DNA of 64,000 nt from positions 1 to 64,000 of IMG/VR virus record IMGVR_UViG_3300034032_000013, one strand, 5' to 3'. Below are positions 45,635-64,000 of this stretch, piece after piece. The notes under the pieces are model-generated. The model made no database searches. It was not told the origin of the DNA and saw only the letters and a program-made list of their open reading frames with translations. A program made the position numbers and the translations under genes. The first letter of the stretch is position 1; every line of letters begins with the position of its first letter. The DNA is from a virus.

Positions 45635-45654
45635 AATAACAAATTTAATGTTAG

Positions 45655-45726: not shown

Positions 45727-45752
45727 TTTTGGGAGAAATTAATCTCCCATTT

Positions 45753-46136: not shown

Positions 46137-46137
46137 T

Positions 46138-46449: not shown

Positions 46450-46450
46450 A

Positions 46451-48244: not shown

Positions 48245-48888
48245 ATTATAGGTTCTTTAAGTAATTGATTAACTTTATTAAAGCAATCATTACAATTCCA
48301 CGTTCCACCTCTATAAACTGCTGCAACTGGATGTTCAGCTGTTATAACTTCACTATTATGTATATAAGGTAATAATGTTTGAGCATCTTTTCCCCATAAT
48401 AGAAATATAACACCACCTTTCTTATCCAATTTTTCAATAGTTCTTCGAGTAAATATTTCCCAACCCTTACCTTTATGACTATTACTAACACCTTTGTCAA
48501 CGGTTAGTACATTATTAAGTAACATCACACCTTGGTCAACCCATCTAGTAAGATTATTATTCCAAAATGGATGTATAGTACCACCATAAACAGTCTTAGC
48601 AATTGCTTTTTCAATTTGTCTAAGACTTGGTGTATAACTACCATCCTCTACTGAAAATGATAATCCGTGAGCCTGATTAGGTTTAATATAAGGGTCTTGA
48701 CCTACTATACAAACTTTAACATTTGAATATGGTGTTGAACGATATGCATTAAATATATTATGAGCTTCAGGATATATAGTAGTTTCTAACCTTCTTTGTT
48801 TAACAAAGTTATTTAAATCTTCCATATATTGCTTACCAAACTCATCTTTCATTAACTCATACCATTCTTCACCTAATAATTCTTTCAT
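48238..48888 (-). CDS. ung: uracil-DNA glycosylase, family 1
   Basis: VGQDPY (catalytic Asp), AHGLSFSV, TPSLRQI, MLLNNVLTV, NSHKGKGWEIFT, FLLWGKDAQ and a C-terminal EHPVAA His motif are all present, in canonical order. Confidence 0.85.
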   Translation of the reverse strand: MKELLGEEWYELMKDEFGKQYMEDLNNFVKQRRLETTIYPEAHNIFNAYRSTPYSNVKVCIVGQDPYIKPNQAHGLSFSVEDGSYTPSLRQIEKAIAKTVYGGTIHPFWNNNLTRWVDQGVMLLNNVLTVDKGVSNSHKGKGWEIFTRRTIEKLDKKGGVIFLLWGKDAQTLLPYIHNSEVITAEHPVAAVYRGGTWNCNDCFNKVNQLLKEPIIW

Positions 48889-49175
48889 TATATTTGTCCT
48901 TTATATTTTCCAGATTTAAAATATTCTGCAAATTTACCTAATTTGTAAGTAACTCTAGCTTTCACATCATCTTTAGAAAACAATTCTTCTAATACTTTTA
49001 GGCGTATCTTAACATCACCAATTTCATCAGTTACTTCTTTTAAATTAACTTTATTAGGTTTATTAACTAATTGTATAAGTACTAATGAAAGTTCATTAAG
49101 CTCTTCTGCTGCTTTTAAAAGGTTATAAGTATAATCATTAGTTTCAGCTAATTTATTTATAATCTCTTTATCCAT
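48888..49175 (-). CDS. MazG-like nucleotide pyrophosphohydrolase
   Basis: 95 aa with an EExxE ... ExxD arrangement (AAEELNEL ... TDEIGDV). Confidence 0.45.
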   Translation of the reverse strand: MDKEIINKLAETNDYTYNLLKAAEELNELSLVLIQLVNKPNKVNLKEVTDEIGDVKIRLKVLEELFSKDDVKARVTYKLGKFAEYFKSGKYKGQI

Positions 49176-49941
49176 TAGGTTGTAATTTTAATCTATTTAT
49201 AGCAGCTTGTATACCAAAGTTATGTACACTCATTGCATTTACAGTAACACCTACATCTTTATATTTATATAAAAAGACTTTCTTATTCTTCTTACTATTA
49301 TTATAGAAAGTTAAAGCAAGATTTTTCATATAATTATCAGATGATATAATAGTTTTATGATTTGTTATTATTTCTTCAGTACTTAATTTAAGTTCTTCTT
49401 CTGTAATATTAAAATAACATCTAATAATTAATGTAAATACACTTATTAAAGCTGTTGTTTTAGTCCAAAATATAGGAGATTCAAAAATTAATGTATCTTC
49501 ATCAAGAATAATAACTGTTCTACTAGGTAATTTTAACATTTCTTCAAATCTATTAATAAACTGTTGAAGATTTTGATATCTTTCAATTAATAATTTTTTT
49601 GCTTTATCAAAATCTGCCCAATTTCCACCACCATTACGATGTAGAGTATTAACACCCAGATAAAAAATATCTTTACCATCAAAACAATTTAATATCTCAT
49701 GATTATAACCATATGCTACACCAATAGTTTTCTTTTCAGATTCAACGAATATAAAATCATTTAAATAATCTTTACAAGCTGTAAATGGCATAAGACAGTT
49801 GTATTTATCTTTATCTGTTTTTTCAAGTATAGAAAAGCCAATACCATAATCTCTTCCTTCACCAAGGTTTTCACGACCTGCTTTATCTTTAATTTTTTTC
49901 ATTAAGTTTATATTTTTGTATACAGTCTTTAACACTATCAC
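49168..49941 (-). CDS. hypothetical protein
   Basis: 257 aa ORF. The start may instead be the internal MKKIKDK (49902), which reduces the overlap with the helicase gene. Confidence 0.6.
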   Translation of the reverse strand: MIVLKTVYKNINLMKKIKDKAGRENLGEGRDYGIGFSILEKTDKDKYNCLMPFTACKDYLNDFIFVESEKKTIGVAYGYNHEILNCFDGKDIFYLGVNTLHRNGGGNWADFDKAKKLLIERYQNLQQFINRFEEMLKLPSRTVIILDEDTLIFESPIFWTKTTALISVFTLIIRCYFNITEEELKLSTEEIITNHKTIISSDNYMKNLALTFYNNSKKNKKVFLYKYKDVGVTVNAMSVHNFGIQAAINRLKLQPNG

Positions 49942-51097
49942 AATAGATGATATTAAAATCTGTTAAATTTTCAGTCATTTTAGTAAACCAAACTTCTTCT
50001 TGAGTGTTCATAGTTAATAGGATAAAAACATTTCCATCTTTATCACCATCTTTACGAAGTCTTCCCCATTGTTGAACAGCGTGTACTTCTGAACTATAAT
50101 AAGACATTATTATAGCATTGGTTAAACCCACTAAATTTGCTCCCTGACGAAGTTTTTTGAACGAACCAATAAGATTTATCTTATCGCTATCAAAGTTGTC
50201 TCTAATCGCTTTATTTTGGTCCTCAGTGTATCTTGATGATACAACATTCTTTGTTATTTTAAGTAAACTATCTAAGCTATTACCAAATAGGATTGTTTTT
50301 CCTTTTAACATTGGTAATAATTGTTTAACAGCTTCAATTTTGGAAGGTAAATTAAATAATAGATTACTTCTCTTTGTAGAAGTTATTCTTATCTTTAATG
50401 ATTTTAAATCTTCGTCTTCTAAATACCAAGATTTTTTATGTTCTCTATCCCAATAATCATATGCTGCTTTCTCTGTTTGGTAGAAAGGTTTATTAGCCCT
50501 ACCAGCTTTAATAGTTTTATTTACACTATCCAAATTTTGTTGAATAACATAAACATTAAGATTTCTTCCCACACCATCATCTTTAGCCTGAGACAAAGTA
50601 TACTTAAAGCATACTGGTGCTATTTTATCTAATAAATCTTTTTTTCTAACTATTTTATCATCAATCATATAACTTGTATTAGCATCAATAGTTGCTGATA
50701 ATCCTACAATTGCATCATAAGTATTATTAAAAAAGAATTTTGAATATTCTGGAGTTAATGCATTATGAATTTCATCAGCTCCAACCAATCCAACTTTAGC
50801 TTCTGACATTTTATATGCAGATTGATAAGTTAGAAACTTTAAATCATAATCTTTTCGAGTAGTAGTACCAAATATCTTATCATATTTAGTAATATCCTTC
50901 TTTAAATCATTTTCTCTATCGACAACTTCAGCTAAAAAGAAATGAATATCATCATTTTTAGGCATACTATGTAAGCAATGTAGAAACATAAATGTTTTAC
51001 CTACACCAGTACTTACTTGAAATGTACCTTTTTTATTAGCATTCAACCAGCTCTCGACTGCTTGCTTCTGAATTTCATCTTGTTTTAGATTATTCAT
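49889..51097 (-). CDS. superfamily 2 DNA helicase (DEAH box)
   Basis: Walker A STGVGKTF, motif II GADEIH, motif III LSATID and motif VI QWGRLRK. Confidence 0.75.
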   Translation of the reverse strand: MNNLKQDEIQKQAVESWLNANKKGTFQVSTGVGKTFMFLHCLHSMPKNDDIHFFLAEVVDRENDLKKDITKYDKIFGTTTRKDYDLKFLTYQSAYKMSEAKVGLVGADEIHNALTPEYSKFFFNNTYDAIVGLSATIDANTSYMIDDKIVRKKDLLDKIAPVCFKYTLSQAKDDGVGRNLNVYVIQQNLDSVNKTIKAGRANKPFYQTEKAAYDYWDREHKKSWYLEDEDLKSLKIRITSTKRSNLLFNLPSKIEAVKQLLPMLKGKTILFGNSLDSLLKITKNVVSSRYTEDQNKAIRDNFDSDKINLIGSFKKLRQGANLVGLTNAIIMSYYSSEVHAVQQWGRLRKDGDKDGNVFILLTMNTQEEVWFTKMTENLTDFNIIYCDSVKDCIQKYKLNEKN

Positions 51098-51112
51098 TTT
51101 ATATTTATAAAA

Positions 51113-51192
51113 AAATATTAACAGCTCGGTGCTTCGTTTTCGCCTGTGGAAATCCCGATAGTTTTAATTTATCCAGGACACTGTTAATATTT
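51113..51192 (-). terminator. long structured intergenic element / terminator downstream of RNR
   Basis: A 12-bp stem aaatattaacag / ctgttaatattt encloses 56 nt that is visibly more G+C-rich (tgtcctggataaattaaaactatcgggatttccacaggcgaaaacgaagcaccgag on the - strand). A T7 run follows on the - strand. Confidence 0.45.
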
Positions 51193-51207
51193 AATATTTA
51201 ATAATTA

Positions 51208-52127
51208 TTATTTAATTTCACAACCATCTGGTCCACAAGCTAGATTTTCACCTAATGAAGTATTATCAGCTAGTTCAATTACTTTAGTCAAATCAACATC
51301 CTTTAATGTCAACATCATCTTTTCGTAAGTTTCTTTGCTACAATCTTCAAATGGTGTTTGTTTATATGTACCACCATCATATGGTAATACAGATAATCCA
51401 TTATAATACTCCTTATTAGCCCACATCCATTCTCCTACAATTTTCCATTCATCAGGTCGCACTGATACTGTACAAGATACATTGTGTGTATTTTGTCCTT
51501 TAACGTGACCTGTCTTAACCCAGTCACGGGAAATTAATTTAACTCTTTCAAGTAAATTCAATGTAGCTTCATGCCGTGTAATCGCTCCTTCAGGGGCTCT
51601 TTGTGGTACTGATATTACTGCTGTAGTCTTAGGACTAAAATATTCATCTTCCAGAAGCTCTGGGTGGTAGATTGATAAGTAAGAATATAATGCTTCATTC
51701 TTATTTATCCTCATTCTACGAATATAATAATCATTATGCCAAGCGTGAATACCTGAACTTGTACCTAATACGAGACTAGTAGTACCTGCTGGTTTAACAG
51801 CGGTAGTTCTAGCTGCTGAATTGATACCTAGTTCTTCTGCAAGTTGTTTATTTTGCTCAATTACAATTTTAGATGCTTCTTCATAATTTAATGCGAGGTT
51901 TGGCTCGGAAGCTATTCCCGTCATTGAAACTCCTAATAAAGCATCTTTCTCAGTATTCTTTCTCCAAATATCACGAAGATAATGAAAGTCAGTATATGAG
52001 GCTTGTAATGTTGCAATATATGATGCCGCTTGAGCACGTTCATTCAAATCAGATTGGTCTTTAATATCACCCATTCCTATCTCAACCAAATTACAAAATT
52101 GGTATGGACGGAGAGCAATTTCACAAC
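51208..52127 (-). CDS. ribonucleotide reductase, exon 2 (class II, monomeric RTPR-like)
   Basis: Begins (C)CEIALRPYQFCNL, then VKPAGTTS and LPYDGGTYKQTPFE, and ends with a C-terminal CGPDGC redox pair. No start codon precedes the conserved CEI...FCNL segment; TGA lies at 52129-52131. Confidence 0.7.
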
Positions 52128-53023
52128 CTCACACTGTAGAGTTACATCAATAATATCTACTCGTGCGCTGGACTATCGCATACGATATGTCTCCAAGTTT
52201 TATCTTTTCTAATAAAATCAATTACATAATTTTTGACATTATATATATCTGCAATTTCATTATTTGATAATCCTTCTTTTATTAGTTTACATTTAATACA
52301 TTTTACCTGTTCTTCATTTAATAACGCTTTACCATTATTTGAACCAACAGATACATTTTTGTATGAATATTTATTAGCTACTCTTGATTGTTTAGCTCTT
52401 TCAGAACGTTTATATTTAGAATCTTTTAATTTTATACCTTCTTTAGTTTTAATTGAAGTATTAATAGAATGTTTTTCCTTATTTTCAGATATTTCGTACC
52501 ATTCTTTTTCAACTCCCAAATTACCACCTTTCTGTGAATTCCAACCAATATTTTGTTTATATCGTAATTGTCCTTCAATCATTAAAGCATCTTTTAATGA
52601 TAGATTATCATAAAGAATTAAAATTTCTAAATTATTCCATCCATATTTTTTTATTGCATTAGTAAGATGTGTTTTCTTCTTATTTTTTTTATGAGATTTA
52701 ATTCTTTCTTCATAATTAGAAGTTAAGCCAATATAACCTTGACTTATTTCATCACCTTTTTGTATAGTATGTTCTAATAAATGTATCCAGTAGATACAAT
52801 ACACATCGTCTCCCTCGCTTAGTCTCTCAGGCTGCACAGAAAATACTTCTTTAATAATTAAAGTAATTTCTTGCTTGCCCCCTGTCGCTGTATTGTCAGC
52901 TTCCAAGTCAATCAGAGGGAGTTTTAAATCCGCATTATGTGTCTTCATAAATAATAATATTTGTTATACAAATATAAGAAATTTTTATAATAATTCCTAA
53001 TTATTTTGAAACTTTTTTAGTTT
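52128..53023 (-). mobile_element. group I intron (896 nt) with internal GIY-YIG homing endonuclease ORF
   Basis: P1: exon AAUCCGU (53030-53024) pairs with GCGGAUU (52933-52927), with a U.G pair at the splice site. P10: exon 2 GUUGUG (52127-52122) pairs with CAUAAU (52939-52934). An R-like element GAGAGACUAAG (about 52817-52830) and an S-like element GAUAGUCC (52170-52177) give P7 GACUA/UAGUC. The intron ends in G (52128). The spliced frame is continuous (1863 nt). Confidence 0.75.
52157..52948 (-). CDS. GIY-YIG homing endonuclease (intron-encoded)
   Basis: Shows VYCIYWI ... GYIGLTSN ... R..SH ... E spacing typical of GIY-YIG. It has a C-terminal helix-turn-helix-like tail (LSNNEIADIYNVKNYVIDFI). 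The ORF ends in TAG. Confidence 0.8.
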   Translation of the reverse strand: MKTHNADLKLPLIDLEADNTATGGKQEITLIIKEVFSVQPERLSEGDDVYCIYWIHLLEHTIQKGDEISQGYIGLTSNYEERIKSHKKNKKKTHLTNAIKKYGWNNLEILILYDNLSLKDALMIEGQLRYKQNIGWNSQKGGNLGVEKEWYEISENKEKHSINTSIKTKEGIKLKDSKYKRSERAKQSRVANKYSYKNVSVGSNNGKALLNEEQVKCIKCKLIKEGLSNNEIADIYNVKNYVIDFIRKDKTWRHIVCDSPAHE

Positions 53024-53966
53024 ACGGATTAGTTCCCCAATCTTTATCATTGGTTAAATAAATCCCTGGTTCACCCGAACCTGATGCTTCAATACGTTCC
53101 CAAACTTTATCAAAAGTTTTCTTGTCAATCTTATGTCTTAATAATACAACAGAGTTATTAGACCTTCCTAACTCAGGCATAATTTCCCACCAATTACCTG
53201 CTTTACAATTTAACATAGCATCGCTATCTAAATCAAATAAACAAATCATTGCTGCTCTACGTATACCACCTGCTAATACTGCATCTGCAATAAAACATTG
53301 TATTCTATGACATTCAATATCAGTAAGTTTACTACCATTTTCTTTTTCACGAAGAATAGCTTCAATTTTCACTAAAGCAATCCTAAGTGGTTCAGGTCCT
53401 GGAGCCTTACCACCAGCTGTAACTAATGCAGCACCTTTTGGTCGAATATCTGATAAATCAAATTCAACATGAGAATTCATACTACCTGTATAAGTTTTCA
53501 TCAACACTTTAATGGCATCAGCCCAGCCTATAATAGAATCCTGAACAACATATCGTTTAGTTCTATTAGAAGAAGGTTTTCTTATCTCTGGTAGTTTATC
53601 TATGTGATGATTCTGGACAGAATATCCCACACCCGTACCACCCAATAATAGAAACATAGTCTCAGAGAAACTATGTATGCTATCAACTGGTAAAAACGCA
53701 CAATTATATATTCTTGCATTGTTTAATTCGATTGCTCGACCTCCGAATTGAAGGGAGCGCATAGAAGGTAATACCTTCTTGGTAAATACATATTCTTGAT
53801 AAATTTTTTCAATATTTTGTTGCAGTTTTGGATATTTTTTAATATGCATCTCCATATTTCTCTTCACAAGTTCGTCCCAAGTTTCCCTCCTTTCTAATTC
53901 GGGCTTAAACTTAGCATACTTACTGTGAACAGTTATGTCTGATAATATCTTTTTATCTACTTCCAA
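53024..53966 (-). CDS. ribonucleotide reductase, exon 1
   Basis: The N-terminal part has VLPSMRSLQFGG and GGTGVGYS and ends ...DWGTNP. This is the first half of the NxCxE active-site loop. TTG is the only available start (53966). Confidence 0.7.
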
Positions 53967-53988
53967 TTCTAATATTTTAAAAATTTAT

Positions 53989-54420
53989 TTATTTTCCTGT
54001 TGAACCAAATCCACCGTTTCCACGGTCAGTATTATCAAGCTCGTCTACTTCTTCAAATTCCATTTGTGGTACTGGTAGAATTACAATTTGTGCAACTCTC
54101 TCTCCCACTTGATATTCCACACTATGTGGAACAGTTTTAAATCGAAGCATTACTTCTCCTCGATAATTTGAATCTACTACTCCAATCGAATTAGCCAATA
54201 TATGACCTGTTTTAGATACTGAACTTCTTGGAAAAAGTAATCCAACATATCCTTCAGGTATTTCCATTGCTAACCCTGTACCAAATTCGGTATAACCATA
54301 TGAACCTGTATCTACAACTTTTTTAGTAGTTGCAGTTAAATCCATACCTGCATCACCTTGTAATGCGTAACTAGGTGTTACGGCTTTTTCATCTAACTTC
54401 TTAAACTTTACTTTTAACAA
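53989..54420 (-). CDS. dut: dUTP diphosphatase (trimeric dUTPase)
   Basis: Motifs AGMDL, GVVDSNYRGE and a C-terminal RGNGGFGSTG. Confidence 0.9.
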   Translation of the reverse strand: MLKVKFKKLDEKAVTPSYALQGDAGMDLTATTKKVVDTGSYGYTEFGTGLAMEIPEGYVGLLFPRSSVSKTGHILANSIGVVDSNYRGEVMLRFKTVPHSVEYQVGERVAQIVILPVPQMEFEEVDELDNTDRGNGGFGSTGK

Positions 54421-54988
54421 ACTCTTCTATTTTAAATGTTTCATATTCTTGTTCAACATACTCTCCAAGTTCCTGATTTACATCAAGAACAACTTTATGC
54501 TCTTTTGAACTAAGTTCCTTTTCAATTTTTTCTTTTAATTTTGGTGATTTGTATAATATATCTTTTACTTTTTGTAAAAAAGGAATACCTAGTGTATTTC
54601 CTGAATAAACTTGACCCCAGAAATCTAATATCAATTGTTTAGCGTCTTCTCCAAATTTGGAATATTGGCTATTGTAAAGATATGCGTATTCATTTAGGTA
54701 TTCTTCAGGAAATCTAAAGATGTATATTACCTTGTTATCCAAATCTATATGCTTAACAAACAATGGGTTATTAGTTAACTTATGTTCGTAAGCAGTAAAA
54801 TCTGGATTCTTAAATGAAAATTCGTGCAATATATAAAAACAATTCTGCAATTCAGGGTCTTCCCCAAACATATAAGTATTGATTAAATATGGCATAAACT
54901 TTATATCAAGAGATAGCACCTGAGCTATCAACGGTAATAAATAAGTCTTTGACTTATTATATCTAGGTTTCATTATTTTATCACTCAT
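54401..54988 (-). CDS. hypothetical protein
   Basis: 195 aa ORF, overlapping its neighbours at both ends. Confidence 0.6.
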   Translation of the reverse strand: MSDKIMKPRYNKSKTYLLPLIAQVLSLDIKFMPYLINTYMFGEDPELQNCFYILHEFSFKNPDFTAYEHKLTNNPLFVKHIDLDNKVIYIFRFPEEYLNEYAYLYNSQYSKFGEDAKQLILDFWGQVYSGNTLGIPFLQKVKDILYKSPKLKEKIEKELSSKEHKVVLDVNQELGEYVEQEYETFKIEEFVKSKV

Positions 54989-56031
54989 TAATTTACTTCT
55001 ATAAAATCATCATTTAAAATTACGTTACCATTATTTTCATAAATTTCTTTATCAAATTCATAACGTTTGTTTTTCCAGTGATAATATATTAGGTCAAGAT
55101 TTTCATCTAACCCTTTATATTTATAACCAGAAATCGTTTTAAATCCCCTCAAAGCTGCATTATGCCACTTTTCACTTATTTCAAATACGTGTGGTACTTT
55201 TTCAAATCTACCAATAAATATAAATTTAAATGGTGCTAGAGTGTAATTCTCTAATTTAAGTAATCTACATATTTCTCCAAAAGCTAAAGTGTAAACACAT
55301 TCTTGGAAATCATAACGATATTTCAGAAAGCTCTTAGTGAATTCGCAAGCTTTACTTGAACCCGTTTTAATATCCTCTATATATACCATTTTAGTATCGT
55401 GGTCTATAGAAAGTTTATCAATTAATCCTCTCAATGTAAAGTTTTTGTATTCAAAACTAAAAGGAAATTGATAATGATTCTCAAAATTATTATTAAATAA
55501 ATGTGATGTGTGTTTATGATTCAATAAAGTATTCACACAATCAAGAGCATCATCATAATCTTTTTGGTCTACTACCAATTTGTTTTTTGTTTCAAATCGA
55601 ATTTTAAGATAATTATGCAATTCAGGAACATCAAATTTCCCTAGTAAAACGTCTTCTTTTTTAACGTTACTCCAAAACTCGTTATGTTTAACTATTTTTA
55701 ACATAGTTTGAACATCTGGTATTGTATCATAATTTTCTATAATTATATCTGCTAATTGTCCTAACATTGCTTTAGGTTTATTATCATCATATAATACATA
55801 ATTCTCTTTAAAAATTGTACTTCCTGTAAGTCTGTCTACAAGCATATCATCAGTCAATGACCCAAAACGTAATCCTTCACCATCAACCAAAATTCTTTTG
55901 ACTAATGCTTTAGGTCCATTTCTATCAAAATCTGAGATTCTTGAATAAGAAAGTTTTAAATCAATTTCTTCTTCATCACTAAGCAATCTTTCTAGTTTGC
56001 TCATCATTTCTTTCTCCTCTTTCATCCGCAA
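54988..56031 (-). CDS. PD-(D/E)XK nuclease (RecB/Cas4-like exonuclease)
   Basis: GLIDKLS ... VYIEDIKTGS (D ... ExK) followed by YRYDFQECVY (the QxxxY element). Confidence 0.6.
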   Translation of the reverse strand: MRMKEEKEMMSKLERLLSDEEEIDLKLSYSRISDFDRNGPKALVKRILVDGEGLRFGSLTDDMLVDRLTGSTIFKENYVLYDDNKPKAMLGQLADIIIENYDTIPDVQTMLKIVKHNEFWSNVKKEDVLLGKFDVPELHNYLKIRFETKNKLVVDQKDYDDALDCVNTLLNHKHTSHLFNNNFENHYQFPFSFEYKNFTLRGLIDKLSIDHDTKMVYIEDIKTGSSKACEFTKSFLKYRYDFQECVYTLAFGEICRLLKLENYTLAPFKFIFIGRFEKVPHVFEISEKWHNAALRGFKTISGYKYKGLDENLDLIYYHWKNKRYEFDKEIYENNGNVILNDDFIEVN

Positions 56032-56254
56032 TTATTAGTTCGATTACCTCGTCTACTAATTCATTAGCTTCTTTATATGGGGAAAGTTTTATATCATAAG
56101 CCATATCTTCCATTTGTTCAATAAGCTTCTCTAGAAATAATCTAGCAGAATTATATTCTTTAAAGTTGATATATCTCTTAAATGTGATATAATCCTTTTC
56201 CTCAAATATAAATTTAGCTAAATTAATTATTTTTCGTAATCTTTTAATGTTCAT
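55979..56254 (-). CDS. hypothetical protein
   Basis: 91 aa. Ends in TAG followed directly by TGA. Overlaps the nuclease gene by up to 53 nt. Confidence 0.5.
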   Translation of the reverse strand: MNIKRLRKIINLAKFIFEEKDYITFKRYINFKEYNSARLFLEKLIEQMEDMAYDIKLSPYKEANELVDEVIELIIADERGERNDEQTRKIA

Positions 56255-56267
56255 TTTAATTTTTATA

Positions 56268-56711
56268 TTAATCTATCTTAATATATACACCAGGATTCTC
56301 CTTGTCTATACTATACGCTTTCCCATCTATAATTAGAGGATAAGGTAAAAAGAATCTCATATTATCATCTTCAATAATATTATGAGCAACCATTAAATCT
56401 GCTAATATTTGATTAGCATTATTAAAGTCAAAATCGTGTTTTGATTTTCTTACGAAGTGAAAGCCTATTTTAAAAGGTTCTTTTTTACCTTCCATTGCTT
56501 TTTCAAACTGTACTCGTAATTTCTCAAATTCATTTTCTCTTTTTACATAACCTTTAACTTCTTTTTTGGATGAAGAATAACTTTGAATACCAAGCTTACC
56601 GAGATATGCTTTAACTGTTTTAGAGCTAAATATACCTCGGCTTGTCTTGATTTTACTATTCTTCAATGAAGGTACATTATATGGAATCCATATTAATCCC
56701 TCTTCTACCAT
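56268..56711 (-). CDS. RusA-like Holliday junction resolvase
   Basis: 147 aa with an N-terminal VPSLKNSK and DFDFNNANQILADLMVAHNIIEDDN. These resemble the RusA PxSxN and DxDN...D..DD acidic motifs. Confidence 0.4.
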   Translation of the reverse strand: MVEEGLIWIPYNVPSLKNSKIKTSRGIFSSKTVKAYLGKLGIQSYSSSKKEVKGYVKRENEFEKLRVQFEKAMEGKKEPFKIGFHFVRKSKHDFDFNNANQILADLMVAHNIIEDDNMRFFLPYPLIIDGKAYSIDKENPGVYIKID

Positions 56712-57406
56712 TCTATTAATTCTTTATGGTAATGATGAACATACTTATCTAAATCATAAAATATTCTTGAGTCTTTTGGTAAAACAATTTCGTCGTTTGA
56801 AAAGATTTTATGTTTCTTTTCATCTATAAATTGCTTATAATAATTACAAGTATTATCAAGAAATACAAAAGCAATATTTTGATGTGTAAGATTAATATGT
56901 TTTATCACAAACCTTGTGAAATGAGCCCAACATTTATGGTGAGAATTATGAAATTCTGATGTTAGACTCGTATTTAACATTAAACAACCTTGTTCCGCCC
57001 AACTTTCTAAAGTATAATCAAATGTTTTCTTATTATCCTGATACTTATAAGTAGTATTTTCAACACACGTTTTAATGTTATTAAGAGCAGGTGGTATCAT
57101 TATAGTATCTTCTGCTACTCCATATGCCAGTCCATTAGACTTCAAATTAGAATAAGGTTGTTTACCTATAAATATTACCTTTAATTCATCATATTTACAC
57201 ATACGAAATGCCCTGAATACATCATCTTTATCACAAGGATAAATCTGTTCAGGAGATGCATATTTTTGATTTATAAACCACGCTAAATTATCCATATAAC
57301 GTTGAATTATAATCTGTATCAAAGGTTGTGCCCAAGTACCTAGTTCATCGCTGTAATTAACCTTTAAACCAGTCTTATCTATTGGATTGATGTGTTCTAC
57401 TACCAT
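56705..57406 (-). CDS. degenerate UDG-fold protein (catalytic residues lost)
   Basis: Collinear with family-1 UDG: IGKQPY (vs GQDPY, Asp to Gln), NGLAYGV, PPALNNI, MLNTSLT, NSHHKCWAHFT, FVFLDNT. It lacks the C-terminal HPSP-type His motif. TAATG overlap with the amidoligase gene. Ends in TAG. Confidence 0.6.
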   Translation of the reverse strand: MVVEHINPIDKTGLKVNYSDELGTWAQPLIQIIIQRYMDNLAWFINQKYASPEQIYPCDKDDVFRAFRMCKYDELKVIFIGKQPYSNLKSNGLAYGVAEDTIMIPPALNNIKTCVENTTYKYQDNKKTFDYTLESWAEQGCLMLNTSLTSEFHNSHHKCWAHFTRFVIKHINLTHQNIAFVFLDNTCNYYKQFIDEKKHKIFSNDEIVLPKDSRIFYDLDKYVHHYHKELIEW

Positions 57407-59256
57407 TATACCATTTCCTCATTAGATTCTTTAATAGGGTCAACAAATTCTAAATCTTGTTTGATAGCATTTGCTTTCGATTGATTATGTAAATGTAACA
57501 TAGCATCATCAAGCATTTGTTTTGATAAATTTACATATGATTTAGAATTTGAATAAGTAGAATTATATATCATATTTTTATGTGCACCTTCATCCATTTT
57601 ATCTGTCCAAACTTTTGTTACAAGTTCTACTTCGGCAATTGGATTAATAGTTATAGGCGCAGATATATAATCATCTTCCTGCATAGATACTTTAGGAGCA
57701 GATTGTTTTGCACGTTTTATCTCTTTTAAATTTATAGGAATATGAATATCCCTTTTATTAAAATCAAGATATTTTGAAACACGAATATGCTCCTCTTTAC
57801 CGATAATATCTCCTCTACAATTATTAGATTCAGTCACCTGTTTCCTAACACTTAAATAGTCATCCATACACATAATTATACTATCTCTATTGGATACATT
57901 GGAAGTATTTAAATACTCTGTAATAATACGACGTAAATCTTTACCATATAAAAAATTCTTGTTTTCAAGAATATTTTTCTGATACTTTTTAGTAAAGTTA
58001 ACCAAGATTGCTGACATTAATATAAATGGAACAATTTTATTTACCTCATAAGTTGGAGTATGTATTCTAAATTCAACAGTTGTTTTGTTACCAAATATCA
58101 ACGGAATTAAATTATGAATGTAATACCTTGTATGAATATTCCACTTTTGATTGTTATTTGGGTCAGAAGGGTGAACTTTTACTTTATCTAAATCATTATT
58201 ATATGCAGCAAAAGGTTGTCCTTGTGATAAATATTCAAATAAAACATTAAAGTTTTCATTAATATTTTCACGAGTAATTATAGCATCCATTCTACTTAAT
58301 AAATCAAATATAGGATATGGTTTAGAATAATTTTTATTCTTAACTTTAAAATTATATTTTTTATATAAAGGAAACATTTGATACATATCATCTTGTACAA
58401 GACAAGTTAATTTAAAAAATGCAAGAATGAATTCTTTTGTTCTAGGAACATTTCCAATATGTAAGTGTAAAGAACAAGTATTATCATAAACAGTTCGTTC
58501 CTTTAAAGGTTCCAACATATCGACTACTGTTTGTAACCCTTTTTCTCCTGAAAGTGGTATAGTTACATATTCTATACCACTTATACTTCCATCTCGTAAA
58601 GGTATTAATCCCACTTTGTTCAAAATTCTATCAGGAATAAATCCTCTAGTAGTTTCAAACTCCAAACCAAAAGATACATCTTCTAAAATTGGAGCATAGG
58701 TTTTAACAACATTACTTATTCTACTTTCATAAAATTTATTATACTTCTCTGTAAAAGCATCAGTAATCCCTCTTGAGTCATAAGGTAGAGATGTTTTATA
58801 CTCTTGTGAAGGTATAATTATTTTATTAAAAGCATTTGCAGGCAATCTTTTAATGTGATAGTATATACCTGATGATAGTTCTTCACGATATTCTCTATTA
58901 TTTTCCAACAATTTCTCGTCTAAAATATAATAGTGTTCACCATTTTCTAAACCTATTTCAGCTTTACCTTCCGCATCAAAATGCCCAAAAATAGGTTGAT
59001 TATTTTCAAAACCAACAATACCATTTACTAGGTTATTTTTATTCATTGTATATTCTTTTGTACTGTGGTTAAAAACGATATTACCAGTTTCGGCTCGATA
59101 ACAACTTTTATTAATAATGTAACAATCTCCTGAATTCTCTTCATTGGTATTACCTATTTTGTAATATCCTGTTGGAAATTTTCTACATTGTGATATTGGT
59201 AATTTCTCGCCTTTAATAGTAATTACTTCTTTTTGCTTACTCATTTTCTTTTTCAT
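57406..59256 (-). CDS. amidoligase (glutamine-synthetase-fold COOH-NH2 ligase, Amidoligase_2-like)
   Basis: 616 aa. Core: FGLEFETTRG ... DGSISGIEYVTIPLSG ... CSLHLHIGN. Confidence 0.65.
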   Translation of the reverse strand: MKKKMSKQKEVITIKGEKLPISQCRKFPTGYYKIGNTNEENSGDCYIINKSCYRAETGNIVFNHSTKEYTMNKNNLVNGIVGFENNQPIFGHFDAEGKAEIGLENGEHYYILDEKLLENNREYREELSSGIYYHIKRLPANAFNKIIIPSQEYKTSLPYDSRGITDAFTEKYNKFYESRISNVVKTYAPILEDVSFGLEFETTRGFIPDRILNKVGLIPLRDGSISGIEYVTIPLSGEKGLQTVVDMLEPLKERTVYDNTCSLHLHIGNVPRTKEFILAFFKLTCLVQDDMYQMFPLYKKYNFKVKNKNYSKPYPIFDLLSRMDAIITRENINENFNVLFEYLSQGQPFAAYNNDLDKVKVHPSDPNNNQKWNIHTRYYIHNLIPLIFGNKTTVEFRIHTPTYEVNKIVPFILMSAILVNFTKKYQKNILENKNFLYGKDLRRIITEYLNTSNVSNRDSIIMCMDDYLSVRKQVTESNNCRGDIIGKEEHIRVSKYLDFNKRDIHIPINLKEIKRAKQSAPKVSMQEDDYISAPITINPIAEVELVTKVWTDKMDEGAHKNMIYNSTYSNSKSYVNLSKQMLDDAMLHLHNQSKANAIKQDLEFVDPIKESNEEMV

Positions 59257-61186
59257 TTGACACTATGAATGTGCTTAAAATTCCGTTAATGTTATCTATT
59301 GTTTTGATAAATTCTTTTGCTATAGAATTTGGCAGATAACCTTCAAGATTTTTCTTAGTTTGATTTAAACTTACAATTGGTTCAGTCAATTCTTCATTAA
59401 TTAAGTTACTAACGATTTCGTCTTCTTCTTTACCTTTCATTTCTAAGTCATCACCAGTATAATCATCTTTAAAATCTTCTTGGTCTTCTTCAACCTTTTT
59501 CATAAAAATAGCATCTGATTGTTCCATAATAGCTGCTGTTTGAGCCTCTTCGTGAGCAAATAAACTTTTCTCTACTCCTTCAAGTACATCTTTTTTAAAA
59601 GGTACGATAGCAACATCTTTAACATCTTCTTTTTTAGACATTGAAATAGGAAGTTGAATAACATCTTTAACAGGGTTTTTAACATCTAATTGAATGTCAA
59701 CACGAGTTCTCATATTTACTAAATTACCCTTACTAAATTCATATACTCTTTCAGAACCTAACGGACAGATATTACCTGTATATAACTTACCATCAAAGTA
59801 AACCTTTTGGTCAGTCATAGGTTCCATTGTCATAGGTGGTACAGGATGTTTAGCTACAATAGATAAATCAATATGATTAAGATACTTTTGATTTTTGTCT
59901 AAAGTTGCTAATCTTTGTTTCATTACATTATAATCATAAACAGTTCTGAGCATTACACCTTGTATAAAATAACAAAGCATTGGTACCTGATGTAATTTAA
60001 ATGGTATAAAATCTGTTGCAGGTTCTACTGTACGATTTCTATGAAATTCTCCATTGATAAATGGTACTCCTGTATATGATTTAATATCTTTTAAAGCCTC
60101 ATCTCTAGTTTGACCCATAGAATGAAAACCGTAACCAGGAATATAAACATATACACCCGTAATAACGTGCCCATTCCTTTTGTATCTTCCTTGATTATAA
60201 TAGGGTTTTCCTTGTCGTAATGGAAGTGGGATGAAGAGGTCTTCTGTGTGAATGTTAACGGTTGATGACATTCCTGAAGTTCTTCTACTGGGATATACCT
60301 CACTAATATCAGATGTCTTAGTACCATAAGTTACAGTATTATGTCTGATATTATTAACATTTATAGGTGATGTATAAGATACATTTTTACTAACATAAGG
60401 TACATTCTGCCAAGTATTTCTTCTACTTACTAAAAGTTTAGTGGCATTTTTAAAATCACCATCTGTTATACAATATACTGTATTATTATCAATTTGAAAA
60501 GCTTGTGTTTCATCAGCTCCTAAAGCATAAAGACTTTCTATCATTGAAGAAAAGAATGTTGAATTTTTACTTCTTTGATATACGCATAAGGGTCTTTCAA
60601 TAGTCATATTAATACTCGTGTCCCAATCTTTTGAAGCACCTGAAAATAGATAAATCTTATTAGGTTCTTCTAACCAAGTCCAAGCTAAAGCTGCACCACC
60701 GATGTATTTACTTAGTACTGTATAATTTTTTTCTTTATACATAATTTCCAGTAATATTTCACTATCTATTTTCTTACGAACATATTTAATGTTATTACTG
60801 AAATATTCTTCTTCAATATCGATATTGTACATTTTAGCAAGCTCTTCATAATTTTTAAGAGTACCATTATGGCAACCAATAAATTCATAGTTACCATTAT
60901 CTAAAGCACCGAAACCAAAAGGATGAGCGTTAAAAGCATTTATTGCACCTACACTAGATTGTCTTGTATGACCAAATATAGTAGGTACACTCTTCGGCTT
61001 AATGTGCCGCTTTTTTATAAAATCACTATATAGCTTATCTTTATCAAGACCTAAATATATTTCACCATCATATGTTAATCCGCAAGAGCTTTTACCTCTT
61101 TCGATATTAAATAGACCTAATATATTCATTTCACCAACTGATAAGCTATTTACATTTTTTGTTACGTGTCCAAAAATTCCGCACAT
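59237..61186 (-). CDS. class II (Ntn) glutamine amidotransferase domain protein with long C-terminal extension
   Basis: The N-terminus MCGIFG (Cys2 nucleophile) is followed by ERGKSSCG, GHTRQSS, AHPF and CHNGTLKNY, as in PurF/AsnB/GlmS GAT-II domains. About 400 aa of unknown sequence and an acidic tail follow. Confidence 0.7.
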   Translation of the reverse strand: MCGIFGHVTKNVNSLSVGEMNILGLFNIERGKSSCGLTYDGEIYLGLDKDKLYSDFIKKRHIKPKSVPTIFGHTRQSSVGAINAFNAHPFGFGALDNGNYEFIGCHNGTLKNYEELAKMYNIDIEEEYFSNNIKYVRKKIDSEILLEIMYKEKNYTVLSKYIGGAALAWTWLEEPNKIYLFSGASKDWDTSINMTIERPLCVYQRSKNSTFFSSMIESLYALGADETQAFQIDNNTVYCITDGDFKNATKLLVSRRNTWQNVPYVSKNVSYTSPINVNNIRHNTVTYGTKTSDISEVYPSRRTSGMSSTVNIHTEDLFIPLPLRQGKPYYNQGRYKRNGHVITGVYVYIPGYGFHSMGQTRDEALKDIKSYTGVPFINGEFHRNRTVEPATDFIPFKLHQVPMLCYFIQGVMLRTVYDYNVMKQRLATLDKNQKYLNHIDLSIVAKHPVPPMTMEPMTDQKVYFDGKLYTGNICPLGSERVYEFSKGNLVNMRTRVDIQLDVKNPVKDVIQLPISMSKKEDVKDVAIVPFKKDVLEGVEKSLFAHEEAQTAAIMEQSDAIFMKKVEEDQEDFKDDYTGDDLEMKGKEEDEIVSNLINEELTEPIVSLNQTKKNLEGYLPNSIAKEFIKTIDNINGILSTFIVSNEKENE

Positions 61187-61210
61187 TTATTTTTATATTT
61201 TTAATTATTT

Positions 61211-62029
61211 TTAAGCCACTTGTAGTGAATATTCACCAATTTTCTCTAATAATTCTATTGCTAAAGATTTATTATTTTCGTTAATTGCTTTAACAATCTG
61301 TTCAGAATATTTATCACTTAATTCATCAACCAATCCTGAATTTACAAGATTAATTGCTTCATAAGTAGTATTCCAAGCCCAAGCTATTAGTTCGTCTGTT
61401 GCAATCCAGAAATTTGATGGTGTACGATACTCCATACCATATGGTTTAAATCTGAAACAACCAGCTTTACCATACAACTCTTTACGTCTATCATCTTTAT
61501 CTAATGCTAAAGACTTCAAGCCTACAGTCATATCCATCGCTTTAACTAATCGTTCCACTGTTTCATCAGCTTCTTCCATAGTCATTTCAGATTTATCAAA
61601 CCCAATATGAATATGACCACCTGCACTTCGCATATTACTTTCAGCATTTGGTGGTTCATTCATACCTTGAGTATAAACATTAAAATCAGGGTCACACCCA
61701 AATTCTTTAGCTTTATCAGAATCCAATTCTTTTTCAGCTAATATAGCAGATGCTGAATAATTAGGTTTACAACCCATTGCAGCAGTGATAATAGTCAAAT
61801 GGTTTTTTACGAAATTGATACTTTCAGTAAATTCTTCAACTGTTTTAGCAGGTGGAATACAAAATTCCATTAACACATTATCTTCTTGGATAGCGTGTCC
61901 TTTTTCACTAATAGGTTTTGGTTCATCTTTACTACCACCAATTAGACCAATTGCTGATACAATTTCTCCATCTCTTTCTAAGAACAATTCTGGGTCACAA
62001 CCAAGTGTGATATTATTAATTTTTTTCAT
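61211..62029 (-). CDS. phage-type COOH-NH2 ligase (type 2, GCS2/glutamine-synthetase fold)
   Basis: 272 aa: GCDPELFL ... QEDNVLMEFCIPP ... AGGHIHIGF ... YRTPSN. It resembles the phiEco32-like amidoligase family, recalled from memory. Confidence 0.5.
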   Translation of the reverse strand: MKKINNITLGCDPELFLERDGEIVSAIGLIGGSKDEPKPISEKGHAIQEDNVLMEFCIPPAKTVEEFTESINFVKNHLTIITAAMGCKPNYSASAILAEKELDSDKAKEFGCDPDFNVYTQGMNEPPNAESNMRSAGGHIHIGFDKSEMTMEEADETVERLVKAMDMTVGLKSLALDKDDRRKELYGKAGCFRFKPYGMEYRTPSNFWIATDELIAWAWNTTYEAINLVNSGLVDELSDKYSEQIVKAINENNKSLAIELLEKIGEYSLQVA

Positions 62030-62047
62030 TTTTTATAATTTTTAAAT

Positions 62048-63067
62048 TTAACCTTTTTTTTTAATTAATACTTCTGGGGTTTTATAAGTGTTTTGTGAAA
62101 ATGGATTTTTACTTTCAATGAAAGGTTTAATAGGTAATGGTTTACTTCTGTTATAACTCTCTTCCTTTTTAGGTGGAATTGAAATTGTTTTAAACAAATA
62201 CATATCCATTAATTTAAAACACCACTGTTTAGTTTTTTCAGGACAATGATTATACTCAGGATGTCCTTGAATACACAAAGAATTTGATTCAGGATAATAA
62301 ATAATCTCAGGTTCTAGGAAATCTTTAGGTAAATCAAATTCTTCATCATTACCATTTAAATATTTAGTACTCTGAAAATATTGACTATGTGCAACTAATT
62401 CAAAGCGATGATCTGGTAAATTAAAAGGGAACATCATTTGATGATGCGTTGATGTAATTTCATATACCTGTCCTGAACCAACGTGTGTAATTTTATGATT
62501 ACCACTATGATTATTTACATCTTGAATCATTTTACCACCGTTCATAACAGTTAAAAATTGACCACCACGACAGATACCTAGTTTAGGCATATCAAATGGT
62601 AATTTTTCATATATCATCATTTCATAATCATCTCTTCTAGAATTAACACCAGTCCAAGAACCTCTTTTATCTCCATATAATGCAGGATTGACATCTTCAC
62701 CACCTGTAAATAGAACTAAATCTACTTCTTGTGATAATCTTTTAGTATTGTCACCTAAGATATTATGATTTACTACAGTTACATCAAAACGAGTATTAAG
62801 ATAATCTACATATTCGTGTGATTTAGTATTATCTGCAATTAAAATTCGTAAAGGTCTTTTTTCAACAATTTCCTGTTCTATTTTATCTTCCCGACGTTCA
62901 AAATATTCAATTAGAAACAGTGCTTTTTCAATTGAACCATGACCTGGAATATTTTGATATACTAATCCTGGCATTCCAACTACATATTTCGATAACAAAT
63001 CAGGATTATTAAGTATATTTTGAGGAAAAACATGATTATCTAAGTAATTTATTACTTCTTTTTTCAT
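62048..63067 (-). CDS. class I glutamine amidotransferase / peptidase C26 (gamma-glutamyl hydrolase-like)
   Basis: LFTGGEDVNPALYG, LGICRGGQFL (nucleophile Cys), STHHQM and IQGHPEY (His-Glu of the triad). Confidence 0.75.
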   Translation of the reverse strand: MKKEVINYLDNHVFPQNILNNPDLLSKYVVGMPGLVYQNIPGHGSIEKALFLIEYFERREDKIEQEIVEKRPLRILIADNTKSHEYVDYLNTRFDVTVVNHNILGDNTKRLSQEVDLVLFTGGEDVNPALYGDKRGSWTGVNSRRDDYEMMIYEKLPFDMPKLGICRGGQFLTVMNGGKMIQDVNNHSGNHKITHVGSGQVYEITSTHHQMMFPFNLPDHRFELVAHSQYFQSTKYLNGNDEEFDLPKDFLEPEIIYYPESNSLCIQGHPEYNHCPEKTKQWCFKLMDMYLFKTISIPPKKEESYNRSKPLPIKPFIESKNPFSQNTYKTPEVLIKKKG

Positions 63068-63939
63068 TATAAATTTGCTTTTTTATTAATTAATTTTGGA
63101 ATCATTTCAATATATTTTCTTGCACATACACTTAGTTCACCTGTTCCATTATCCATAGAACTGGCACTATTACATTCAAGAAGTATATAATCCTGATATT
63201 CCCTTTTCTTACCTTTACCATCAACTGGTGATTGTACTTTAACATCAAAACTAAGTACATCTGCACCTACAGATTTTAAAGCTTTAACACAATCTTTCTC
63301 AATATCACTCCAACTATTAGGTTTGAAGAAAGATTCATTTTCTTCTAAGAACCATACACAAGTTGAATCGTGAAAATGCCATTTTTCTTCTTCAGGTGTA
63401 TCTTTACGTAATGCTTTTCTACAAGCATAAAAACAACCATCTTCAGTAATATGAAGTCTAAACTCGTGAGCATAGTTCATAAACTTTTCAAAGATATAGT
63501 TAGCTAAGGTTTTATCAACTTTCCAAGCATCCAATTCAGCTTGAGATTTAATTAAAGTATTACCTTTACCTTTACTACCATAATGAGCTTTTGCTACAAT
63601 AGGGAATTGAAGTTGCCCACCTTCCATTTTAGCAGCTAATTCAGCTTCAAAGTTTGCTCCACCTTGAACCCATATAGCAGTTCTAACACCTGATGCCTCG
63701 AAACAACGTTTCATAAGTAGTTTATTTGCTGAATTCTTTACAGCTTGTACTGTATTAATCTCAACACGTCTACCACCATTAGCAATAGTATCCTGAACTT
63801 CAGTAGTGCTGCCAAATCTGACAACACTACGAATTTTAGATAATGGTAAGTTCTTAGAACTAAACTTTAAACAATTATGTGATGGATGTCTTGAAACAAC
63901 CATTGGTCTGAACATTGTAATTTGTTTTTTAACTGCCAT
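63067..63939 (-). CDS. ATP-grasp ligase (RimK-like)
   Basis: FPIVAKAHYGSKGKGNTLI, EKFMNYAHEFRLHI and the terminal ILLECNSASSM element are in ATP-grasp order. TAATG overlap with the next gene. Confidence 0.6.
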   Translation of the reverse strand: MAVKKQITMFRPMVVSRHPSHNCLKFSSKNLPLSKIRSVVRFGSTTEVQDTIANGGRRVEINTVQAVKNSANKLLMKRCFEASGVRTAIWVQGGANFEAELAAKMEGGQLQFPIVAKAHYGSKGKGNTLIKSQAELDAWKVDKTLANYIFEKFMNYAHEFRLHITEDGCFYACRKALRKDTPEEEKWHFHDSTCVWFLEENESFFKPNSWSDIEKDCVKALKSVGADVLSFDVKVQSPVDGKGKKREYQDYILLECNSASSMDNGTGELSVCARKYIEMIPKLINKKANL

Positions 63940-63941
63940 TT

Positions 63942-64000
63942 TTATTTTAATTTATTTTTAACTATACTTTTTAATCTACGCATATCTATATCATCTAAAT
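63942..64000 (-). CDS. 3' end of an upstream gene (partial, extends beyond window)
   Basis: The frame is open from the window edge and reads ...LDDIDMRRLKSIVKNKLK, ending at TAA 63942-63944, 2 nt before the ATP-grasp ATG. Confidence 0.35.
   Translation of the reverse strand, partial: LDDIDMRRLKSIVKNKLK

Follow-up and report, generated by a model that had tools for sequence, protein, structure and literature searches.

A nine-gene amidoligase and amidotransferase cassette in a crAss-like phage genome, with predicted glutamine/glutamate amide chemistry

Several cellular pathways follow a common logic in which a gamma-glutamyl amide is made at the expense of ATP and is then removed by an Ntn hydrolase, a C26 hydrolase or a cyclotransferase. 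These include the pathways of glutathione (GshA with a GCS fold, the ATP-grasp enzyme GshB and GGCT), ergothioneine (EgtA with a GCS fold and the Ntn enzyme EgtC), putrescine (Puu/Pau, with GS-like PuuA and the C26 hydrolase PuuD) and butirosin (the ATP-grasp enzyme BtrJ and the cyclotransferase BtrG). Furthermore, the assembly of dapdiamide, a small antimetabolite, involves a ligase, the Ntn amidotransferase DdaH that converts an acyl carboxylate to a carboxamide, and the ATP-grasp enzyme DdaF. In phages, an amidoligase gene neighbourhood was reportedly predicted in 2009 by Iyer, Abhiman, Burroughs and Aravind (Mol Biosyst), in a study that is said to be the source of the families PF14395 and PF12224. 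Here, we analyzed such a neighbourhood, hereafter the cassette, on the minus strand of a stretch of 64,000 nucleotides (positions 1 to 64,000 of the IMG/VR virus record IMGVR_UViG_3300034032_000013), which we call the window. Later papers credit Iyer et al. 2009 with the suggestion of a role in cell-wall modification, superinfection exclusion or secondary metabolites. As the first-pass annotation of the window had stated, the neighbourhood is known from comparative genomics alone: in the literature up to 2026, the genes are merely annotated or the 2009 prediction is repeated, and no functional experiment was found.

The window is part of the genome of a crAss-like (Crassvirales) phage, since its major capsid protein (2853-4361) shares 62% identity with its counterpart in Cellulophaga phage phi14:2 and 47-49% with those of crAss-like phages from the gut, and since giant open reading frames (ORFs) of 1349-2188 aa lie on its plus strand (20258-44964). 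Its G+C content is about 29%. The identical 649-aa amidotransferase of the cassette was found on the full 104-kb contig, on which the region around its gene is locus L006. An NCBI entry for the same protein is filed under an Allosphingosinicella sp. metagenome-assembled genome (MAG), probably by a binning error, to judge from the 29% G+C. No near-identical DNA was found in deposited phages.

The ORF positions bear out the earlier description of five consecutive minus-strand genes that overlap or lie at most 24 nt apart (Table 1). The ATP-grasp and C26 genes overlap by 1 nt, gaps of 18 nt and 24 nt separate the COOH-NH2_lig gene from the C26 and amidotransferase genes, respectively, and the amidotransferase and amidoligase genes overlap by 20 nt. 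The amidoligase gene also overlaps the next gene, which encodes a UNG-like protein, by 1 nt (TAATG). No terminator-like hairpin was found on the minus strand from about 54100 to 64000. The whole minus-strand block (45015-64000) is equally tightly packed, and close spacing is thus not peculiar to the cassette. The five genes proposed as an operon are present, but they are not all of it: the window edge cuts the cassette, and the full unit comprises nine genes between a DNA primase gene and the UNG-like gene, since four more cassette genes lie on the contig beyond that edge. The order on L006 upstream of the ATP-grasp gene is DNA primase, a 246-aa GGACT, a 134-aa GGACT (Pfam 2e-16), a 243-aa Peptidase_C26 (4e-29) and a 258-aa protein, of which only the last codons reach into the window. 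The five genes of the window are the 3' two-thirds of this nine-gene cassette. None of the cassette members has a signal peptide or a membrane segment, and all are predicted to be soluble. PADLOC defence models gave no match among the ten proteins scanned.

Table 1. Features of the cassette and of the adjoining UNG-like gene in the 64,000-nt window
Feature	Position	Strand	Basis
3' end (last 18 codons and stop) of the 258-aa cassette gene, phrog_11079	63942..63998	-	translation ending in LDDIDMRRLKSIVKNKLK and a stop, the C-terminus of L006:6469-7245
ATP-grasp carboxylate-amine ligase, 290 aa	63067..63939	-	phrog_2599 9e-23; Pfam ATP-grasp 22.3 bits
Peptidase_C26 / class I GATase-fold thiol hydrolase, 339 aa	62048..63067	-	PF07722 4.3e-18; PF00117 6e-7
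COOH-NH2_lig type 2, 272 aa	61211..62029	-	PF14395 1.1e-8; phrog_3815 4.6e-81
Amidotransferase gene, 649 aa	59237..61186	-	
Ntn (class II) glutamine amidotransferase domain, residues 1-262	60401..61186	-	MCGIFG start; GATase_6 30.2 bits
Conserved C-terminal domain of the amidotransferase, residues 308-498	59693..60265	-	high pLDDT; invariant residues
Acidic, poorly conserved helical tail of the amidotransferase, residues 499-649, pI 4.4	59237..59692	-	AlphaFold long helices, mixed pLDDT
Amidoligase gene, 616 aa	57406..59256	-	
All-beta N-terminal domain of the amidoligase, about 190 aa	58687..59256	-	AlphaFold beta strands; profile matches
Amidoligase_2 (GS/GCS-fold) catalytic domain, residues about 191-495 of 616	57772..58686	-	PF12224 26.4 bits; phrog_2443 9e-30
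Degenerate family-1 UNG-like protein, 233 aa, outside the cassette	56705..57406	-	NCBIfam Ung 1e-35

Profile searches against Pfam and PHROGs upheld the assignment of the five window proteins to ATP-grasp, C26, COOH-NH2_lig, Ntn and Amidoligase_2, the ATP-grasp protein scoring below its Pfam cutoff. The general chemistry read from the window at first, three ligases plus glutamine- or gamma-glutamyl-handling enzymes, also holds. The catalytic residues are intact in three ATP-dependent ligases and one Ntn amidohydrolase, with up to four gamma-glutamyl-cleaving enzymes beside them.

The 649-aa protein begins with an Ntn domain that is matched by several amidotransferase families of PHROGs (about 3e-9). 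Its AlphaFold model has a mean predicted local distance difference test (pLDDT) of 81.5, mostly above 80 in the Ntn domain. The structural check suggested for this protein confirmed its N-terminal domain: Foldseek matched the first 262 residues to GlmS, GFAT, PurF, AsnB and EgtC at 1e-10 to 1e-7. Residues C2, R30-G31, R75, N107-G108 and D141 are invariant in 42 amidotransferase homologues; we take them to be the nucleophile, the binders of the glutamine backbone and the oxyanion hole known from GlmS and PurF. The C-terminal domain occupies the place of the acceptor or synthase domain of class II amidotransferases and has its own invariant residues (R334, G344, G353, F376, G410, D418, Y419, S442, P448, G466, Y482 and G487). 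A profile of this domain matched 244 of 1.84e9 proteins, and those listed carry it nearly all at about position 300-520 of proteins of about 600-700 aa. The same profile had no sequence match in PDB. No SIS, PRTase or Asn-synthetase PP-loop domain was detected in the 649-aa protein with Pfam and NCBIfam, whose matches stop at about residue 150-260. GlmS, PurF and AsnB were hence rejected as identities for the amidotransferase, which lacks any known synthase domain C-terminal to the Ntn domain. For the same reason, the annotation 'glucosamine-6-P aminotransferase' of its relatives is unfounded. Full-length fold matches were obtained only to the orthologues from phi14:2 and the gut crAss phage cr108_1, all other Foldseek matches covering the Ntn domain alone.

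The 272-aa COOH-NH2_lig scores well above its Pfam cutoff (35.1 versus 25 bits) and belongs to a family, PF14395, that we take to be GCS/GS-like. Its invariant residues include D12, E14, E55, H139, R193, E200 and R202. It is 36-43% identical to its counterparts of the phiEco32/PaP3 type, and a tblastn search retrieved 316 deposited phage records, including phage-therapy Pseudomonas phages and Escherichia coli Kuraviruses. The family appears to be phage-specific, matches in the genome collection being nearly all phage-like MAG contigs. The second enzyme of this fold, the amidoligase, has the invariant residues E195, E197, R217, D218, E225, H260, H262, E391, R393 and H395 (numbering of a 612-aa form), that is, the set E-x-E, R-D, E, H-x-H and E-x-R-x-H. 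Foldseek gave weak matches to YbdK, GS, PafA and GCL, the best at E 2.5e-3. Its N-terminal domain has no Pfam match and is common to crAss-like and cyanophage versions of the protein, as indicated by hidden Markov model matches to phi14:2 (2e-30) and cyanophage Lbo-JY46 (5e-16). PDB sequence searches with COOH-NH2_lig and the amidoligase, as single sequences or profiles, retrieved nothing, and a related-locus search with the amidoligase in viral contigs gave no confirmed relatives. In metagenomes, 512 relatives of the amidotransferase and 1227 of the amidoligase were found at E <= 1e-5, and many of those listed lie on contigs of about 95-105 kb, like crAss-like genomes.

The third ligase scores 22.3 bits against Pfam ATP-grasp, below the cutoff of 27, and matches phrog_2599 of PHROGs at 9e-23. 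A profile from 10 homologues matches structures of PurK (1e-8), cyanophycin synthetase, alpha-L-glutamate ligase/RimK-type enzymes and Ddl, and PurK and cyanophycin synthetase rank ahead of the RimK-type chains. The usual Lys, Glu, Arg and Asp/Glu-x-Asn residues are kept, the invariant positions being K73, E159, R161, H163, K175, D232, E255 and N257. RimK, the name given in PHROGs, was rejected as an identity, since the protein reaches 26.3 bits with TIGR00768 against a cutoff of 143.4 and PurK scores higher. Judged from sequence, the protein can be assigned to the ATP-grasp superfamily only, 'RimK-like' reflecting a weak similarity.

The 339-aa C26 protein, which has an N-terminal extension of about 100 aa, clearly exceeds its Pfam cutoff (66.3 versus 20.5 bits) and matches phrog_7218 at 7e-37. 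The Cys-His-Glu triad noticed in the first-pass annotation (GICRG / HHQ / HPE) is kept in all aligned homologues of both paralogue groups. The best NCBIfam matches are gamma-glutamyl-CDP-amidate hydrolase (3e-9) and PuuD, both under cutoff. More generally, among named enzymes the C26 proteins come closest to gamma-glutamyl amide hydrolases (PuuD, gamma-glutamyl-CDP-amidate hydrolase and SpuA-type enzymes), and the 339-aa protein is a predicted gamma-glutamyl amide hydrolase. GGCT without C26 occurs in phi14:2 and PaP3, C26 without GGCT in many podovirus-type loci, and both in the window phage and Lbo-JY46. C26 and GGACT enzymes thus replace or accompany each other, and such substitution among phages fits a common gamma-glutamyl-cleaving role. 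In two related crAss-like contigs, the small C26 gene (L007:4319-5871 and L008:5654-7252) is broken by about 1 kb with an opposite-strand ORF of 201 aa, the insertion point lying precisely after FGI and before the catalytic Cys of GICRG. Similarly, the COOH-NH2_lig coding sequence of the Kuravirus Bas89 is annotated as two joined pieces around an HNH gene (L010:6475-7786). We read the homing-endonuclease insertions before the C26 Cys codon and the HNH-split ligase as indirect signs of strong constraint.

The cassette is kept in various combinations by phages of distant hosts. In phi14:2, the order is GGCT, ATP-grasp, COOH-NH2_lig, amidotransferase, amidoligase and UNG-like gene. In cr108_1, the ATP-grasp gene is followed by two genes of no assigned family, a class I GATase, COOH-NH2_lig, amidotransferase, amidoligase and UDG. 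Lbo-JY46 encodes homologues of both C26 paralogues, GGCT, COOH-NH2_lig, ATP-grasp, amidotransferase and amidoligase. PaP3, SE131 (7-11-like) and Bas89 share COOH-NH2_lig, a protein of about 200 aa, amidoligase, amidotransferase, small ORFs, ATP-grasp and GGCT. The same core was found in three further crAss-like contigs (L007, L008 and L009). Moreover, a degenerate, hand-made DNA pattern for one COOH-NH2_lig motif, run on a genome collection, revealed 25 loci, nearly all on MAG contigs of phage-like size. Within at most 8 kb of the motif, these loci carry C26 (18/25), amidoligase (18/25), amidotransferase (17/25) and ATP-grasp genes (10/25) in varying order. Amidotransferase and amidoligase genes are adjacent, in both orders, in phi14:2, cr108_1, Lbo-JY46, PaP3, SE131 and Bas89 and at most of the longer new loci (exceptions: L022, L026, L029 and L032), which suggests that the two enzymes act as a pair. 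The carriers are phages of Proteobacteria, Bacteroidota and cyanobacteria, and possibly of the candidate phyla radiation and Actinobacteria. The retention of the cassette through rearrangement, across phages of several phyla, is strong evidence that these five or six families form one functional unit.

Other genes were observed near the cassette in some phages. A peptide deformylase gene (L007:9465-9986) lies between COOH-NH2_lig and amidotransferase in one crAss-like relative. Genes of NAD salvage, encoding NAMPT or PncB together with phosphoribosyl pyrophosphate synthetase, are found adjacent or close to the cassette of SE131 (L002:1-2549) and Lbo-JY46 (L005:1549-5758), which belong to two unrelated lineages. 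Paralogous pairs of proteins of about 250-350 aa are encoded near the cassette of SE131 (gp122/gp123, L002:6000-7986), cr108_1 (gp029/gp030, L004:13671-15572) and Lbo-JY46 (L005:3227-4732); these pairs have no family match and no detectable kinship between the three phages. In podovirus-type loci (L019, L021, L022, L025, L026, L029, L032 and L033), an ORF of about 185-250 aa is located beside COOH-NH2_lig, on the amidoligase side where an amidoligase is present and directly beside COOH-NH2_lig in L021 and L025. The ORFs of L021, L022, L025, L026, L029 and L032 form one family, homology to those of L019 and L033 not being demonstrable. Their position is that of the phrog_4877 protein in PaP3, SE131 and Bas89 and of the fused N-terminal domain in crAss-type amidoligases. 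Comparisons by hhalign and iterative hmmsearch, made with shallow alignments, gave no link between the amidoligase N-terminal domain, the amidotransferase C-terminal domain, the 258-aa protein, C26, phrog_4877 (PaP3 orf47), PaP3 orf49/orf50, cr108_1 gp029/gp030 and the podovirus-type ORF of about 200 aa.

In our best reading, this crAss-like phage expresses the nine-gene cassette together with its genes for the replication phase. We hold it about evenly balanced that the cassette encodes a cytoplasmic, ATP-dependent pathway which assembles and trims amide bonds by glutamine/glutamate chemistry and yields a small-molecule product or a modified common metabolite. The product would most likely be a soluble small molecule, either peptide-like or a gamma-glutamyl amine, or else a common cellular metabolite in modified form, and would serve host takeover. 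In this pathway, the Ntn domain (Cys1) would hydrolyze the amide of L-glutamine or of a gamma-glutamyl compound, with the Amidoligase_2 protein as its partner. The latter would activate a substrate carboxylate with ATP to an acyl-phosphate, which the freed ammonia or amine would convert to an amide. Alternatively, the Ntn domain may remove a gamma-glutamyl group, as EgtC does. COOH-NH2_lig, the second enzyme of the GS/GCS fold, and the ATP-grasp ligase would each attach a further amino acid or amine. The two C26 and two GGACT enzymes would cut gamma-glutamyl amides, giving glutamate or 5-oxoproline, and could thereby either take off a gamma-glutamyl group that had served transiently as handle or protection, or recycle by-products.

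Several points weigh against this proposal. Ammonia channelling by the Ntn domain is argued from adjacency alone, with which a pure hydrolase similar to EgtC is equally compatible. The amidotransferase C-terminal domain, the amidoligase N-terminal domain and the 258-aa protein could not be placed in any known fold or family, and the substrate may thus be a macromolecule. Furthermore, the AlphaFold model of the amidoligase is only moderate (pLDDT 65.8), the subfamily of the ATP-grasp protein could not be assigned from its sequence, and for none of the members, in whatever phage, does the literature name a substrate, product or phenotype. Finally, biosynthesis of a product and modification of an existing metabolite are indistinguishable on present data.

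Other functions can be considered for such a set of enzymes. The cassette could attach Glu/Gln-type residues or a short peptide tag to a protein of the host or of the phage, in a manner similar to RimK, LysX/LysW or Pup, with C26 and GGACT trimming or reversing the modification. The resemblance of the ATP-grasp protein to the RimK family and alpha-L-glutamate ligases, among others, would agree with this, but its RimK score is far under the cutoff (26 versus 143 bits), and PurK and cyanophycin synthetase do equally well or better. Likewise, the Pup ligase PafA turns up in the fold search with the amidoligase, although this match is insignificant (E 0.06). The amidotransferase and the amidoligase both carry large domains of a recognition type, and a peptide deformylase gene lies inside the L007 cassette. 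In PaP3, Kuravirus and SE131, a small conserved ORF is found ahead of the ATP-grasp gene; however, such ORFs are not conserved across lineages, the crAss-type cassette has none, and no LysW- or Pup-like C-terminus was seen. A ribosomal peptide or carrier of the LysW/Pup kind was rejected as substrate, the small ORFs of the gammaproteobacterial phages being lineage-limited and missing from the window cassette. On this evidence, we regard protein modification as unlikely. Modification of the envelope seems to us distinctly improbable. It would consist in amidation or extension of the gamma-D-Glu/meso-diaminopimelate (mDAP) stem on the cytoplasmic UDP-MurNAc-peptide, so as to block superinfection or prepare lysis. 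Known wall amidation relies on a ligase and glutaminase pair (MurT/GatD, or AsnB-type enzymes for mDAP), which speaks for this function, and a universal stem peptide would match the very broad host range of the carriers. It is also the function for which later papers cite Iyer et al. 2009. Nevertheless, Mur-ligase, Fem-type and envelope-targeting proteins are missing from the cassette, its members are neither secreted nor membrane-bound, and it lies among replication-phase genes rather than lysis genes. Least probable of all, in our opinion, is a loose group of auxiliary metabolic genes without a single product that would scavenge glutamate, glutamine or nitrogen, for instance by breakdown of glutathione and gamma-glutamyl-polyamines or by supplying glutamine for nucleotides. 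C26 and GGACT enzymes are indeed catabolic in cells (PuuD, GGACT), and NAD-salvage genes (NAMPT/PncB, Prs) neighbour the cassette in SE131 and Lbo-JY46. Such scavenging hardly accounts for three different ligases and a dedicated acceptor-type domain, for a COOH-NH2_lig family that appears phage-specific, or for five or six families staying together through many rearrangements across phyla.

The first-pass annotation had favoured hypermodification of a nucleobase or DNA, in which GS-fold and ATP-grasp ligases would attach an amide-linked Glu/Gln-derived group to a base. Its starting points were the replication and nucleotide block around the cassette and the 1-nt overlap with the UNG-like gene. 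As it had noticed, the UNG-like protein is a catalytically dead member of the fold: it scores 122 bits against a cutoff of 162 for NCBIfam Ung, has GKQPY in place of GQDPY and lacks a His motif of the HPSPLS type, and is thus without the catalytic Asp and His. It may be a non-catalytic binder of uracil-DNA. The corresponding motif is GKEPY in phi14:2 and is yet more eroded in L007. Only in L006, L007, phi14:2 and cr108_1 does a UNG-like gene come after the cassette, and the syntenic gene of cr108_1 retains its catalytic motifs. None was found within 10 kb on either side of the cassette in L008, L009 and Lbo-JY46, in the annotated regions of PaP3, SE131 and Bas89, or at any of the 25 pattern-found loci. 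The gene was hence rejected as a cassette member, its linkage not being conserved. The nucleotide-metabolism setting itself is real, with ThyX (PF02511), dUTPase, nucleoside triphosphate pyrophosphohydrolase and class II ribonucleotide reductase on the minus strand, besides a helicase and a second, canonical UNG paralogue (48238-48888; GQDPY, EHPVAA), but it does not support DNA modification. These genes represent canonical dNTP supply and ordinary dTMP/dUTP metabolism, and ThyX is the only thymidylate synthase seen in the block. The suggested search for a hydroxymethyl-pyrimidine-forming enzyme or kinase revealed no TS-like pyrimidine hydroxymethylase, 5-hydroxymethyldeoxyuridine DNA kinase or aGPT-Pplase-type/glycosylase-like transferase in the minus-strand block of the window; about 30 kb of contig beyond L006 and some plus-strand ORFs were outside its scope. 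The position of the cassette says little about its substrate, since the replication module also holds unrelated early/middle genes. GS-fold and ATP-grasp ligases are, to our knowledge, absent from all known pathways of DNA hypermodification. In favour of the hypothesis, the Gordonclarkvirinae (Kuravirus and others) all appear to carry the cassette, and the restriction resistance of Kuraviruses is unexplained. In addition, the nearest named relative of the large C26 protein acts on a nucleotide-linked gamma-glutamyl amide, with a score under the cutoff. Against this, the DNA of two cassette-bearing phages is cut by six type II enzymes: that of the LUZ24-like phage tf by RsaI, HpaI, EcoRV, SmaI and HaeIII, this DNA having also been cloned and Sanger-sequenced (PMC3517423), and that of Delta, a phage of the PaP3 species, by BamHI (PMC8540360). 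Concerning Kuravirus restriction resistance, a dCTP deaminase and a nucleotidyltransferase, rather than the cassette, are the candidates of the BASEL authors. DNA hypermodification is therefore very improbable. If it were true, it would represent a new hypermodification chemistry and would account for the resistance of cassette-bearing Gordonclarkvirinae to restriction-modification.

Some features of the window lie outside the cassette. The class II ribonucleotide reductase gene is split (53022-53966 and 51208-52089) by a gene encoding a 263-aa homing endonuclease (52157-52948), in an intron-like arrangement. A DUF3307 / phrog_2470 'membrane protein' gene (45753-46136) is located at the distal end of the minus-strand block. 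Moreover, a 745-aa protein (13249-15486) aligns over 66% of its length, at 38% identity, with the Bacillus phage Deep Blue tail spike, a cross-phylum likeness that is unexpected in a crAss-like phage.

The neighbourhood has been predicted since 2009; what is new here is its expanded nine-gene version, the interchangeable or additive use of C26 and GGACT enzymes and a clearer list of neighbours that are not members. The cassette is among the more widespread multi-enzyme sets of tailed phages without a known product. Identifying this product would add a new metabolite or modification to those that phages make and would correct misleading labels such as 'GlmS' and 'S6 glutaminyl transferase'. Its function could be more readily attacked in cultured carriers (phi14:2, LUZ24/PaP3 and Kuraviruses) than in the uncultured phage of the window.

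Among described phages, the closest cultured relative is phi14:2 (Crassvirales, Steigviridae), with the cassette genes g037-g041 and an order that continues after the UNG-like gene with RusA and an exonuclease. Its amidotransferase (638 aa) matches that of the window over its full length in Foldseek (1e-40) and its amidoligase has 515 aa; however, both C26 genes and the 258-aa gene are lacking in phi14:2, and protein identities are only 29-45%. The window phage also has the components of the neighbourhood described by Iyer et al.: a PF14395 ligase, an Amidoligase_2 gene adjoining an Ntn amidotransferase gene, and an ATP-grasp ligase with a gamma-glutamyl-cleaving enzyme. It shares with phages of the phiEco32/PaP3 type the COOH-NH2_lig type 2, Amidoligase_2, Ntn amidotransferase, ATP-grasp and GGCT/AIG2 genes and their location in an early/replication region. 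It differs from them by its two C26 and two GGACT genes, by the N-terminal domain of about 190 aa fused to its amidoligase, by its gene order and by its host lineage, which is that of Bacteroidota-type crAss-like phages. The C-terminal domain of its amidotransferase shows no detectable relationship to its PaP3-type counterpart, and the window phage lacks both the phrog_4877 protein and the paired proteins of about 300 aa of the gammaproteobacterial phages. Compared with the cellular pathways that use a gamma-glutamyl handle, folds and logic are alike, and EgtC and PuuD are among the matches of the cassette proteins. Nevertheless, there is no orthology and all scores are far under the family cutoffs, making this an analogy of mechanism and not membership; moreover, these pathways have tailoring enzymes between ligation and removal, whereas the cassette has none. 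Dapdiamide assembly combines enzymes of the same kinds with no sequence kinship beyond superfamilies, and DdaH has the Asn-synthetase domain that the cassette amidotransferase lacks.

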